DNA of 64,000 bases. It comes from Eledone cirrhosa. Taxonomy: Eukaryota. Location: positions 283,464,001 to 283,528,000 of the forward strand of contig OZ024742.1 in assembly GCA_964016885.1 (NCBI GenBank), given 5' to 3'. Positions 53,562 through 64,000 of this stretch are shown piece by piece; the stretch's first letter is position 1; the number at the start of each line of letters is the position of its first letter. Position numbers and translations under genes: made by a program. The notes under the pieces were generated by a model. That model was not told where the DNA came from. It saw nothing but the letters and a program-made list of their open reading frames with translations, and searched no databases.

Positions 53562-56500
53562 ATTGAAACAAAATGAAAACGAAATTTCATTTCTCACTCT
53601 TAGTATGGCACTTACTTAAATGTAAGTATGCATGTATACGTACATACATATATGTATACAGACGTACAGTAGCATGCACATATATATATATATATATATA
53701 TATACACATATATATACATATGCATACAGGTACACATACATATATGCACGTATCAGTTTAGCGGCGCTAACGTCGCTTTGTTCGTTTGTAAACAAACTGA
53801 ACAGCCTGAATTTATGCCATACGGTGTTAAGGCAACCACGTCACCTTTTTGTTCAACACTGACACAGGAACGATGTACTAGTTTCAAGCTTGTTAGCTAT
53901 CATCAGCACCGTTTACCCATCTGCCAGATAGTTGAACGTTCGAAAGTATATACTTTCCTTATGAAAATTAACGGCTGAGCAGCCTAATTTGCATATTGAG
54001 TGAGTTAAATCGGTTAGGCATACCGAAAACGATAAATTGAAACAAAATGAAAACGAAATTTCATTTCTCACTCTTAGTATGGCACTTACTTAAATGTAAG
54101 TATGCATGTATACGTACATACATATATGTATACAGACGTACAGTAGCATGCACATATATATATATATATATATATATACACATATATATACATATGCATA
54201 CAGGTACACATACATATATGCACGTATCAGTTTAGCGGCGCTAACGTCGCTTTGTTCGTTTGTAAACAAACTGAACAGCCTGAATTTATGCCATACGGTG
54301 TTAAGGCAACCACGTCACCTTTTTGTTCAACACTGACACAGGAACGATGTACTAGTTTCAAGCTTGTTAGCTATCATCAGCACCGTTTACCCATCTGCCA
54401 GATAGTTGAACGTTCGAAAGTATATACTTTCCTTATGAAAATTAACGGCTGAGCAGCCTAATTTGCATATTGAGTGAGTTAAATCGGTTAGGCATACCGA
54501 AAACGATAAATTGAAACAAAATGAAAACGAAATTTCATTTCTCACTCTTAGTATGGCACTTACTTAAATGTAAGTATGCATGTATACGTACATACATATA
54601 TGTATACAGACGTACAGTAGCATGCACATATATATATATATATATATATATACACATATATATACATATGCATACAGGTACACATACATATATGCACGTA
54701 TCAGTTTAGCGGCGCTAACGTCGCTTTGTTCGTTTGTAAACAAACTGAACAGCCTGAATTTATGCCATACGGTGTTAAGGCAACCACGTCACCTTTTTGT
54801 TCAACACTGACACAGGAACGATGTACTAGTTTCAAGCTTGTTAGCTATCATCAGCACCGTTTACCCATCTGCCAGATAGTTGAACGTTCGAAAGTATATA
54901 CTTTCCTTATGAAAATTAACGGCTGAGCAGCCTAATTTGCATATTGAGTGAGTTAAATCGGTTAGGCATACCGAAAACGATAAATTGAAACAAAATGAAA
55001 ACGAAATTTCATTTCTCACTCTTAGTATGGCACTTACTTAAATGTAAGAATGCATGTATACGTACATACATATATGTATACAGACGTACAGTAGCATGCA
55101 CATATATATATATATATATATATATACACATATATATACATATGCATACAGGTACACATACATATATGCACGTATCAGTTTAGCGGCGCTAACGTCGCTT
55201 TGTTCGTTTGTAAACAAACTGAACAGCCTGAATTTATGCCATACGGTGTTAAGGCAACCACGTCACCTTTTTGTTCAACACTGACACAGGAACGATGTAC
55301 TAGTTTCAAGCTTGTTAGCTATCATCAGCACCGTTTACCCATCTGCCAGATAGTTGAACGTTCGAAAGTATATACTTTCCTTATGAAAATTAACGGCTGA
55401 GCAGCCTAATTTGCATATTGAGTGAGTTAAATCGGTTAGGCATACCGAAAACGATAAATTGAAACAAAATGAAAACGAAATTTCATTTCTCACTCTTAGT
55501 ATGGCACTTACTTAAATGTAAGTATGCATGTATACGTACATACATATATGTATACAGACGTACAGTAGCATGCACATATATATATATATATATATATATA
55601 CACATATATATACATATGCATACAGGTACACATACATATATGCACGTATCAGTTTAGCGGCGCTAACGTCGCTTTGTTCGTTTGTAAACAAACTGAACAG
55701 CCTGAATTTATGCCATACGGTGTTAAGGCAACCACGTCACCTTTTTGTTCAACACTGACACAGGAACGATGTACTAGTTTCAAGCTTGTTAGCTATCATC
55801 AGCACCGTTTACCCATCTGCCAGATAGTTGAACGTTCGAAAGTATATACTTTCCTTATGAAAATTAACGGCTGAGCAGCCTAATTTGCATATTGAGTGAG
55901 TTAAATCGGTTAGGCATACCGAAAACGATAAATTGAAACAAAATGAAAACGAAATTTCATTTCTCACTCTTAGTATGGCACTTACTTAAATGTAAGAATG
56001 CATGTATACGTACATACATATATGTATACAGACGTACAGTAGCATGCACATATATATATATATATATATATATACACATATATATACATATGCATACAGG
56101 TACACATACATATATGCACGTATCAGTTTAGCGGCGCTAACGTCGCTTTGTTCGTTTGTAAACAAACTGAACAGCCTGAATTTATGCCATACGGTGTTAA
56201 GGCAACCACGTCACCTTTTTGTTCAACACTGACACAGGAACGATGTACTAGTTTCAAGCTTGTTAGCTATCATCAGCACCGTTTACCCATCTGCCAGATA
56301 GTTGAACGTTCGAAAGTATATACTTTCCTTATGAAAATTAACGGCTGAGCAGCCTAATTTGCATATTGAGTGAGTTAAATCGGTTAGGCATACCGAAAAC
56401 GATAAATTGAAACAAAATGAAAACGAAATTTCATTTCTCACTCTTAGTATGGCACTTACTTAAATGTAAGTATGCATGTATACGTACATACATATATGTA

Positions 56501-57478
56501 TACAGACGTACAGTAGCATGCACATATATATATATATATATATATATACACATATATATACATATGCATACAGGTACACATACATATATGCACGTATCAG
56601 TTTAGCGGCGCTAACGTCGCTTTGTTCGTTTGTAAACAAACTGAACAGCCTGAATTTATGCCATACGGTGTTAAGGCAACCACGTCACCTTTTTGTTCAA
56701 CACTGACACAGGAACGATGTACTAGTTTCAAGCTTGTTAGCTATCATCAGCACCGTTTACCCATCTGCCAGATAGTTGAACGTTCGAAAGTATATACTTT
56801 CCTTATGAAAATTAACGGCTGAGCAGCCTAATTTGCATATTGAGTGAGTTAAATCGGTTAGGCATACCGAAAACGATAAATTGAAACAAAATGAAAACGA
56901 AATTTCATTTCTCACTCTTAGTATGGCACTTACTTAAATGTAAGTATGCATGTATACGTACATACATATATGTATACAGACGTACAGTAGCATGCACATA
57001 TATATATATATATATATATATATATACACATATATATACATATGCATACAGGTACACATACATATATGCACGTATCAGTTTAGCGGCGCTAACGTCGCTT
57101 TGTTCGTTTGTAAACAAACTGAACAGCCTGAATTTATGCCATACGGTGTTAAGGCAACCACGTCACCTTTTTGTTCAACACTGACACAGGAACGATGTAC
57201 TAGTTTCAAGCTTGTTAGCTATCATCAGCACCGTTTACCCATCTGCCAGATAGTTGAACGTTCGAAAGTATATACTTTCCTTATGAAAATTAACGGCTGA
57301 GCAGCCTAATTTGCATATTGAGTGAGTTAAATCGGTTAGGCATACCGAAAACGATAAATTGAAACAAAATGAAAACGAAATTTCATTTCTCACTCTTAGT
57401 ATGGCACTTACTTAAATGTAAGTATGCATGTATACGTACATACATATATGTATACAGACGTACAGTAGCATGCACATA
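53562..57478 (-). repeat. Tandem array of a 474-bp unit (8 full copies + partial), one HHR per unit: retrozyme-like family A
   Basis: Near-identical units with 474-bp period; (TA)n at both ends. Confidence 0.95.
53869..53913 (-). ncRNA. Type I hammerhead ribozyme, family A (repeats every 474 bp)
   Basis: AACGGUG CUGAUGA U AGCU AACA AGCU U GAAA C UA GU A CAUCGUU. Confidence 0.85.
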
Positions 57479-57627
57479 TATATATATATATATATATATA
57501 AGCAAAGGGGATATTTAATTTGTTGGTAATTCAACAAATATATATGTTTATAACTGATTCGAAGCACTCGACAGTTTCCGTTAAGATCTTCTTCCTGAAT
57601 ATGTCAATATTTATAAAACAAACTTTG

Positions 57628-61900: not shown

Positions 61901-62972
61901 CATACTGGTTTTTGAGGAAACACCTTTCCTCTATTCTCCAGAAAGCCAGACAAGGAATATTGAACTAGTTTCGTTGTTGTTACAACTCATCAGCAATATT
62001 TACCTATCTTCCGGCCTCTCTAGAGAATCGTAAAAGCACATATCGTTATATGCTTTTTCTATGAAAATTAGTAGTGGGCAGACTAATTTGCATAGAGTGT
62101 GAGTAAGTACCGGTTCAACGGAGACGATCAAAACAAATAACGAAACGAAATTAAATTTCGTTTCGTTTGTAACTCACTTTTGTATGACTGACGCTTAAAC
62201 AATTAAGTTAAAGATGTACATCCATATATGTATACTGAAATACTAGTATGTATATGAATACACACACGTATACATATGTAGATGTACCAAGTTTTTTTTC
62301 ACTGGTCACTTTACTGTGAGTGGCCAGCTATTCCGTATGTAAACACACAGACAAACCGGTTTTTATAGTCATACTGGTTTTTGAGGAAACACCTTTCCTC
62401 TATTCTCCAGAAAGCCAGACAAGGAATATTGAACTAGTTTCGTTGTTGTTACAACTCATCAGCAATATTTACCTATCTTCCGGCCTCTCTAGAGAATCGT
62501 AAAAGCACATATCGTTATATGCTTTTTCTATGAAAATTAGTAGTGGGCAGACTAATTTGCATAGAGTGTGAGTAAGTACCGGTTCAACGGAGACGATCAA
62601 AACAAATAACGAAACGAAATTAAATTTCGTTTCGTTTGTAACTCACTTTTGTATGACTGACGCTTAAACAATTAAGTTAAAGATGTACATCCATATATGT
62701 ATACTGAAATACTAGTATGTATATGAATACACACACGTATACATATCTAGATGTACCAAGTTTTTTTTTCACTGGTCACTTTACTGTGAGTGGCCAGCTA
62801 TTCCGTATGTAAACACACAGACAAACCGGTTTTTATAGTCATACTGGTTTTTGAGGAAACACCTTTCCTCTATTCTTCAGAAAGCCAGACAAGGAATATT
62901 GAACTAGTTTCGTTGTTGTTACAACTCATCAGCAATATTTACCTATCTTCCGGCCTCTCTAGAGAATCGTAA
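58916..62972 (-). repeat. Tandem array of a 469/470-bp unit (about 8.6 copies, 9 HHRs): retrozyme-like family B, left arm
   Basis: Near-identical units; length varies by 1 nt in a poly-T run. Confidence 0.95.
59141..59185 (-). ncRNA. Type I hammerhead ribozyme, family B (repeats every 469-470 bp)
   Basis: AAUAUUG CUGAUGA GUUGU AACA ACAAC GAAA C UA GU U CAAUAUU. Confidence 0.92.
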
Positions 62973-64000
62973 TGTGCTTTTACGATTCTCTAGAGAGGCC
63001 GGAAGATAGGTAAATATTGCTGATGAGTTGTAACAACAACGAAACTAGTTCAATATTCCTTGTCTGGCTTTCTGGAGAATAGAGGAAAGGTGTTTCCTCA
63101 AAAACCAGTATGACTATAAAAACCGGTTTGTCTGTGTGTTTACATACGGAATAGCTGGCCACTCACAGTAAAGTGACCAGTGAAAAAAAAACTTGGTACA
63201 TCTACATATGTATACGTGTGTGTATTCATATACATACTAGTATTTCAGTATACATATATGGATGTACATCTTTAACTTAATTGTTTAAGCGTCAGTCATA
63301 CAAAAGTGAGTTACAAACGAAACGAAATTTAATTTCGTTTCGTTATTTGTTTTGATCGTCTCCGTTGAACCGGTACTTACTCACACTCTATGCAAATTAG
63401 TCTGCCCACTACTAATTTTCATAGAAAAAGCATATAACGATATGTGCTTTTACGATTCTCTAGAGAGGCCGGAAGATAGGTAAATATTGCTGATGAGTTG
63501 TAACAACAACGAAACTAGTTCAATATTCCTTGTCTGGCTTTCTGGAGAATAGAGGAAAGGTGTTTCCTCAAAAACCAGTATGACTATAAAAACCGGTTTG
63601 TCTGTGTGTTTACATACGGAATAGCTGGCCACTCACAGTAAAGTGACCAGTGAAAAAAAACTTGGTACATCTACATATGTATACGTGTGTGTATTCATAT
63701 ACATACTAGTATTTCAGTATACATATATGGATGTACATCTTTAACTTAATTGTTTAAGCGTCAGTCATACAAAAGTGAGTTACAAACGAAACGAAATTTA
63801 ATTTCGTTTCGTTATTTGTTTTGATCGTCTCCGTTGAACCGGTACTTACTCACACTCTATGCAAATTAGTCTGCCCACTACTAATTTTCATAGAAAAAGC
63901 ATATAACGATATGTGCTTTTACGATTCTCTAGAGAGGCCGGAAGATAGGTAAATATTGCTGATGAGTTGTAACAACAACGAAACTAGTTCAATATTCCTT
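62973..64000 (+). repeat. Family B array, inverted right arm (HHRs at 63013-63057, about 63483-63527, about 63952-63996); runs off window
   Basis: Reverse complement of the left-arm unit after the junction gaatcgtaa|tgtgcttttacgattc. Confidence 0.95.

Follow-up and report, generated by a model that had tools for sequence, protein, structure and literature searches.

In a 64,000-nt window of the Eledone cirrhosa genome (GenBank assembly GCA_964016885.1, contig OZ024742.1, positions 283,464,001 to 283,528,000; G000:C3:283,464,001-283,528,000 in our numbering of the 3.0 Gb animal assembly) we analyzed two related tandem arrays, A and B, whose units of ~470 nt each carry a hammerhead ribozyme motif. 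Our results suggest that A and B are non-autonomous retrozymes of the kind without long terminal repeats (non-LTR), mobilized by the enzyme of a Penelope-like element (PLE) via a circular RNA template, a reading to which we assign a probability of about 70%. It is built on the observed unit structure, copy number, (TA)n targets, back-to-back arms, two outer ends used once each and a single haplotype per insertion, from which we infer cleavage, circles, the enzyme and use of a promoter. The retrozyme class itself is already known and what is new here is the insertion anatomy.

Hammerhead units of families A and B

Tandem Repeats Finder placed array A at 53,558-57,500 (period 474 bp, 8.3 copies) and array B at 58,915-62,972 (period 469 bp, 8.6 copies), with an inverted B arm that starts at 62,972 and extends ~1.2 kb past the window, ending at G000 C3:283,529,225. 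A preliminary description of this DNA had reported two tandem arrays, and their positions held; array B, however, is not of a single orientation but flips at 62,972 and is two-armed. A second, smaller two-armed insertion of family A at ~29,658-30,617 had been overlooked. Type I cores within the window numbered eight in array A (minus strand) and nine minus plus three plus in array B, i.e. one per full unit, in agreement with the one hammerhead described earlier for each 474-bp and 469-bp unit. Cleavage is predicted after GUA in A (between 53,876 and 53,875 in the first unit) and after GUU in B (between 59,148 and 59,147). The A and B units are 70% identical over their full length and are thus homologues, with a likeness not confined to the ribozyme. 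No open reading frame (ORF) of at least 150 aa was found in 53,562-64,000, so the units are non-coding, and the ORF scan of the same region detected no reverse transcriptase (RT) plus GIY-YIG frame of an autonomous PLE.

In both families we found the core CUGANGA / GAAA / UH, three helices and an open helix I, as expected for type I, and stem I, the AACA loop II, the UA bulge and the ACUAGU palindrome were all present as described before. The core was invariant in 14/14 haplotypes apart from position 7 and H17. Pairing was assessed in 14 hand-picked haplotypes from four families (17 pairs, 238 cells): 92.4% of the cells pair and 8/17 pairs have changed on both sides. This agrees with the earlier claim that the stems covary between families, except that stem II of family A closes with a U.U mismatch. 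Neither the paired fraction nor the covariation score was matched in 500 shuffles (0/500) and the pair count was reached in 20/500, counts that are not a probability because the sequences are related. The helix II closing pair G10.1-C11.1 is kept in B and C (4/14 rows), while A has U.U and D has C.G or C.A; a U.U at the base of helix II is also known from the active axolotl variant HHR_Amex2 (PMC7229834). A hammerhead descriptor matched both real units and 0/20,000 shuffles of each. In Rfam, named in the preliminary description as a check, nothing in the window reached gathering level, although the B unit matched Hammerhead_HH9 below threshold (37.7 bits, E 9.6e-8; gathering 52) and A gave just 18.5 bits (E 0.16). 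Rfam matches to microRNAs on the (AT)n hairpin were dismissed as compositional. The computed duplex energies of the ACUAGU palindrome were -6.8 and -7.2 kcal/mol, and the ~470-nt circle has a strongly self-paired predicted fold (z about -9 to -10). Change of core A9 to G was rare genome-wide, with 12 A copies and 4 B copies.

Genome-wide, exact cores numbered 10,333 for A and 5,098 for B against 0 for reversed-pattern controls, which shows that the families are dispersed; the possibility that they form a satellite confined to this locus thereby fails. Non-coding tandem type I units in thousands of near-identical dispersed copies fit the earlier proposal of a recently active non-LTR retrozyme, and judged by their sequence A and B almost certainly belong to this class. 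Of an A stretch, 67-92% of sampled words were found in four organisms, and one A stretch had coverage in 2/4 contig runs. A looser core pattern that excluded A gave 10,767 matches and brought in two further families, C (with a stem II compensatory to that of B) and D (older and A-like), seen at loci L221 and L222 (G000 C1:5,738,095-5,752,743), L223-L234 and L227-L230. One family C array holds 31+1 cores with mosaic variants. Pieces of family A also occur at 2-16 kb spacing at G000 C14:25.03-25.38 Mb and C2:60.57-60.60 Mb, apparently inside larger tandem duplications.

Insertion anatomy

The orientation of units was tallied for the first 100 listed cores of each family, which form 79 clusters. 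All clusters with two orientations (25/25) were arranged back-to-back with their 3' ends outward. Two sites in the unit serve as outer ends, ~315 and ~255 for family A and ~303 and ~232 for family B; these fixed sites, which we call tail+ and tail-, lie 60-70 nt apart, with tail- earlier in the unit. Ends were then tallied over 116 clusters with a caller that required a TA-rich flank: for 49 both ends could be assigned within one family, 2 mixed-family calls were left untallied and 65 had one end or none. A tail+ end was paired with a tail- end in 48 of the 49 insertions (p ~2e-13 against a coin). All of the outer ends inspected in sequence (22/22) adjoin a TA-rich repeat. The arms reach 11+11, 17+7 and 16+2 cores, and the inner junctions lie at many unit positions, mostly with few-base overlaps, which is unlike twin priming on one linear RNA. 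No LTR arrangement was present in the mapped loci, where a primer-binding site and polypurine tract were not searched for.

Array A, seen with one arm, breaks at its inner end inside the unit's own (AT)n hairpin, adjoining another Penelope-type repeat; a hammerhead-like motif at 57,636 adjoins this broken end. At L131 (G000 C1:50,500-60,400) the arms of a B insertion are split by a long interspersed nuclear element (LINE) with a 1,040-aa frame, and a second LINE copy lies on the other side in opposite orientation.

Relation to Penelope-like elements

An inverted arm, a one-sided tail and a bias for (TA)n are features of PLEs (PMC8557442). In vitro, a PLE protein nicks and extends both target strands and prefers AT-rich DNA, and it primes at two internal sites whose spacing equals the genomic tail (PMC11167929). 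The two fixed ends of A and B, one per arm, match the two priming sites of such an RT, a connection to PLEs that the preliminary description did not draw, and the ORF-bearing PLE of the window has the same ends. This truncated, GIY-YIG-coding PLE (34,713-36,807) has a 59-nt tail on one arm and none on the inverted arm, (TA)n flanks, an inverted pseudo-LTR (pLTR) arm and a minimal hammerhead of its own (36,552 on the plus strand, 34,986 on the minus strand). The 97 scored matches of its family are 97-100% identical, and their open frames reach 1,290 aa. The sequence evidence thus indicates that A and B were very probably moved by a PLE enzyme with both target strands primed.

A second PLE type is present in the window at 589-1,692 (minus strand) and at L142, L147 and L148, with the RT motif YRDD and, in L142, a C-terminal endonuclease; its family has recurrent 713-aa open frames in the genome, and its clade may be Hydra-like. 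A search for the partner by shared hammerhead or tail recovered other PLE hammerheads only and no match to A/B, a stem II pattern with C/G at the second position gave 0 matches, and in the 3' regions of the few PLE families compared there was no convincing pLTR homology to an autonomous partner. As neither PLE family shares the A/B ribozyme or tail, their proteins are candidate enzymes only.

Haplotypes and A-to-G changes

In each insertion all units of both arms share one haplotype; the window B insertion departs from the B consensus at four sites, and does so in each of the 12-14 copies covered in the two arms. The units are 99-100% identical, in some arrays microsatellite length included. 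We consider it probable from these sequences that a circular template was copied for several rounds.

Changes in single units were largely C-to-T and G-to-A (59/203, with 13 A-to-G), whereas private changes fixed in an array were richer in A-to-G (8/26, with 5 T-to-C). In family B, A344G was found in 103 copies and at 17 loci among 100 listed, with five origins on the tree, against 3 copies with A344C/T, 3 with T346C and 1 with T347C. After removal of 16 loci ascertained by A344G and of positions 339-345, the B tree still had more A-to-G than T-to-C changes on terminal (4 vs 0) and internal branches (13 vs 3, p 0.011). L193 differs from its close relative L175 by 11 A-to-G and one T-to-C change, in both arms; these include core A9 and two unpaired sites, and two are repeated in consecutive units. 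L208 has four or five such changes, among them A361G, A362G, A450G (core A9) and A452G, in two consecutive units, and in L200 an AA-to-GG pair recurs in every one of the nine units covered, on both arms. Clustered A-to-G changes that are common to both arms or to consecutive units point to ADAR-type edits on one monomer copied repeatedly, and on the sequence record we lean towards editing of some templates by ADAR. The octopus is among the most hyper-edited animals (PMC5625713). The neighbor preference of ADAR was weak, with a 5' G at 3/28 sites vs 24/152 in the background.

Two further candidates were set aside. The combination A339G/A343G/A344G was rejected as a private single-circle haplotype, since 69 copies at 7 loci on one background make it a lineage. 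A clustering of second A-to-G changes within family A copies (12/49 copies vs 1/110 for T-to-C) was discounted because six carry an allele that marks a sublineage in at least some loci and the L207 change is in one arm only.

A small-RNA promoter motif upstream of the ribozyme

In this genome the consensus TATG(C/G)(A/T)AAT(T/G)AG is found at -76 to -79 of three U6 promoter types, U6atac and RNase MRP, with a TATA box at ~-30, and constitutes an octamer-like upstream element of these genes at ~-77 (L035-L038, L065, L239). U2 upstream regions (L050-L064) lack the motif and have a TATA-like stretch near -33 instead, and it is not present at three other U6 and five U6atac loci, which are probably pseudogenes. 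Both A and B match the U6-type consensus exactly, upstream of the ribozyme. The chance of such a match is ~0.1% per unit (115 and 124 of 100,000 shuffles of A and B), there was none (0) in 52,200 flanking bases, and the motif is intact in 69/73 and 59/79 distinct units. A start set by the upstream motif or by the TATA-like box would fall in the 5' arm of the extended stem I. Transcription from this U6-type motif is, on its sequence, a tentative proposal.

The conserved block TAATTTTCATA was rejected as a proximal sequence element, as it is the hairpin partner arm of the first motif and differs in family D. Avoidance of a sense-strand RNA polymerase (Pol) III terminator, seen in two window units, was absent across haplotypes and was also rejected.

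Proposed mechanism and alternatives

In the mechanism we propose, the array would be transcribed and neighboring hammerheads, probably dimerized through the ACUAGU palindrome, would excise a cut-to-cut monomer of ~470 nt that is ligated to a circle. Dimer-assisted cleavage of this kind has been described (PMC4209133). The PLE protein would nick both strands of a (TA)n target and reverse transcription would be primed at the two internal sites on either side of the tail stem-loop, with one site for each strand. Each polymerase would circle its template for up to 10 or more units, and the two complementary DNAs would be joined head to head at a variable point. The arrays could later expand further as DNA.

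An alternative template for the PLE enzyme would be a linear, multimeric RNA read through from a source array of uniform units and perhaps terminated at the oligo-U run of tail+, with no circle needed; the length of long arms would then reflect that of the transcripts, together with later expansion as DNA. Higher-order patterns of DNA-level origin in long arrays agree with this, and so do haplotypes that are often common to several loci (one in 7 loci), T4-T7 runs that coincide with the tail+ end and the observation that unprocessed RNA was the dominant substrate, with no reads ending at the ribozyme cut, in PMC11167929. We still regard a linear template as unlikely, since a multimer edited unit by unit would not yield short insertions with identical clustered A-to-G changes, core A9 among them, in both arms or in consecutive units. 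Moreover, repeated 5' truncation would shorten the arrays each generation, yet the youngest insertions are long-armed. Further from our data is a model, discussed in bioRxiv 10.64898/2026.07.22.740005, in which the units were seeded once from PLE pLTRs and are now a satellite amplified and spread as DNA, with the ribozyme as a relic. The mosaic variants of the longest arrays and the copies carried in larger segmental repeats (the C14 and C2 runs) would be expected from it, but it is largely refuted by the end anatomy (tail+/tail- pairing in 48/49, back-to-back arms in 25/25, (TA)n targets) and made very improbable also by the compensatory stem changes and by the restriction of core A9G to only 12 A and 4 B copies. 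We give hardly any weight to assembly or fold-back read artefacts as the source of inverted arms and identical units: units that are 99-100% identical down to microsatellite length might raise this suspicion, yet a fold-back would be mirror-symmetric, whereas here each arm has its own fixed end position, the two sides are not in the same junction phase and haplotypes vary from locus to locus.

Several observations weigh against our reading of PLE-driven copying of circles, some of which were edited and made from a U6-type element. In the few PLE families compared, we found neither the hammerhead nor the tail sequence of A/B. A-to-G and T-to-C changes are balanced in family A (3 vs 4 on terminal and 4 vs 3 on internal branches), where A361G (49 copies) is not commoner than T363C (50) or T364C (60); selection for G.U wobbles in A-U stems could also favor A-to-G over T-to-C. 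A period-3 variant is found in one L137 arm and not in the other, the 31-unit array L221/L222 has mosaic variants and A249T occurs in two non-adjacent units of the window A array; such recurring variants, seen also in L032, indicate DNA-level duplication after insertion. As for the promoter, the TATA-like box lies 41-42 nt downstream of the motif in A and B vs 46-48 nt in U6-type genes, the sense strand has T5 in 66/79 distinct B/C-like units and T7 in 14/73 A-like units, and the motif also serves as an RNA hairpin arm. The A339G/A343G/A344G lineage lacks the motif yet has spread to 7 loci, which argues against a strict need for it. In published work, 8/9 predicted Xenopus retrozyme dimers were uncleaved in vitro (bioRxiv 10.64898/2026.07.22.740005) and uncleaved RNA was the main template of the PLE in PMC11167929.

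Comparison with known systems

Like the metazoan non-LTR retrozymes of coral, mussel and axolotl (PMC7229834), A and B consist of non-coding tandem units with one type I hammerhead each, low GC, a self-paired predicted circle and thousands of copies. They differ in that their units are ~470 nt vs 170-400. The preliminary description had considered the units larger than known monomers; this is true with regard to the 170-400 nt of PMC7229834 but not to the 51-972 bp of bioRxiv 10.64898/2026.07.22.740005, whose range includes them. The words inverted, octopus and cephalopod are absent from the main text of PMC7229834, in which no promoter of the elements is described either, and in PMC5680766 nothing was found on this group.

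With the PLE-derived non-LTR retrozymes of bioRxiv 10.64898/2026.07.22.740005, A and B have in common a co-occurrence with PLEs, the proposed use of PLE machinery and a unit length within range. That work argues from co-distribution and from pLTR homology across 35 genomes, mostly of vertebrates, whereas the link for A/B is insertion anatomy; its main text holds no tail, promoter or inverted-arm analysis. By their sequence, A and B fit the view presented there that non-LTR retrozymes derive from and depend on PLEs.

Endonuclease-positive (EN+) PLEs likewise show an inverted 5'-truncated arm, a tail at one end, (TA)n targets and no discernible target duplication (PMC8557442, PMC11167929, PMC4209133), and their hammerhead has a short palindromic helix III (PMC4209133, PMC8557442, PMC11167929). 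Unlike these elements, A/B have no ORF, their tail is 60-70 nt vs 30-40, both arms are multi-unit arrays and the hammerhead is canonical-like with an extended stem I, whereas that of the EN+ PLEs is minimal. Internal promoters have been reported for newt satellite 2 (small nuclear RNA-type Pol II) and schistosome hammerhead satellites (Pol III) (PMC2220036); unlike in these satellites, the A/B motif matches the upstream element of the own genome's U6, U6atac and RNase MRP genes, not U2, and its use as a promoter is putative. We found no published description of two-armed tail+/tail- retrozyme arrays, of edited templates or of a cephalopod family in the literature, with subscription journals and some supplements uncovered.

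Other features of the window

Positions of the features are given in Table 1. Other hammerhead-like motifs, often in inverted pairs, occur at 57,500-58,450, 37,678/37,808, 28,093/28,692, 14,033 and 49,316 and are probably pLTR remnants of further PLE families. A LINE fragment with endonuclease- and RT-like frames lies at ~31,980-34,712 (plus strand) between TA microsatellites. An ankyrin-like exon (41,787-42,311) and an ion-transport exon (50,585-51,589), both on the plus strand, belong to a TRP-type channel gene, and an atlas search with the neighboring exon matched TRP-like channels. Since a GTAAGT donor follows the 50,585-51,589 exon, the arrays may sit in an intron.

Table 1. Coordinates of retrozyme and PLE features in the window (+, forward strand; -, reverse strand)
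Feature	Position	Strand	Remarks
Family A array, 8.3 units of 474 bp, one arm seen	53564..57500	-	tail+ site at outer (3') end, bordering (TA)n
A hammerhead with extended stem I, first unit	53850..53930	-	core 53,876-53,906; recurs every 474 bp; U.U at stem II base
A upstream motif TATGCAAATTAG (53,984-53,995) and TATA-like box (53,946-53,952)	53946..53995	-	motif also arm of predicted RNA hairpin
A tail (~60 nt), bounded by the two fixed 3' end sites	53564..53623	-	contains stem-loop
Family B left arm, 8.6 units of 469 bp	58915..62972	-	tail- site at outer end, bordering (TA)n
B hammerhead with long extended stem I, first unit	59115..59215	-	core 59,148-59,178
B upstream motif TATGCAAATTAG, first unit	59268..59279	-	
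Family B right arm, inverted, with the left arm's haplotype	62972..64000	+	ends 1.2 kb past the window, tail+ against (TA)n
Second, independent family A insertion	29658..30617	+	cores at 29,796 and 30,270; tail- end left, tail+ end right, in (TA)-rich microsatellite
(TA)n target microsatellite beside the B insertion	58528..58915	.	
GIY-YIG ORF of truncated PLE	35,579-36,346	+	

Implications

How, and by which enzyme, animal retrozymes return to DNA is stated as open in PMC7229834 and in bioRxiv 10.64898/2026.07.22.740005. Taken together, the two-armed shape, the editing-like scars and the promoter motif of small-RNA type suggest a route by which RNA circles are turned into DNA copies. In its most complete form, which we put forward with reservation, each insertion would record a single circular ribozyme RNA, copied over several rounds by a Penelope-like dimer with priming of both target strands at the two fixed sites, with some circles A-to-I edited before copying and a captured U6-type element making each array its own source. 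If this is true, RNA edits turned into heritable DNA that all units of the two arms carry, and the insertions are genomic evidence for the hitherto hypothetical rolling-circle step of animal retrozymes. A single genome here provides mapped ends, a defined target, very young insertions by the thousand and intact frames of candidate enzymes, which makes questions on the insertion of retrozymes and PLEs testable. If the A-to-G clusters are ADAR edits, they would tag single RNA molecules and represent RNA editing written into the germ line.

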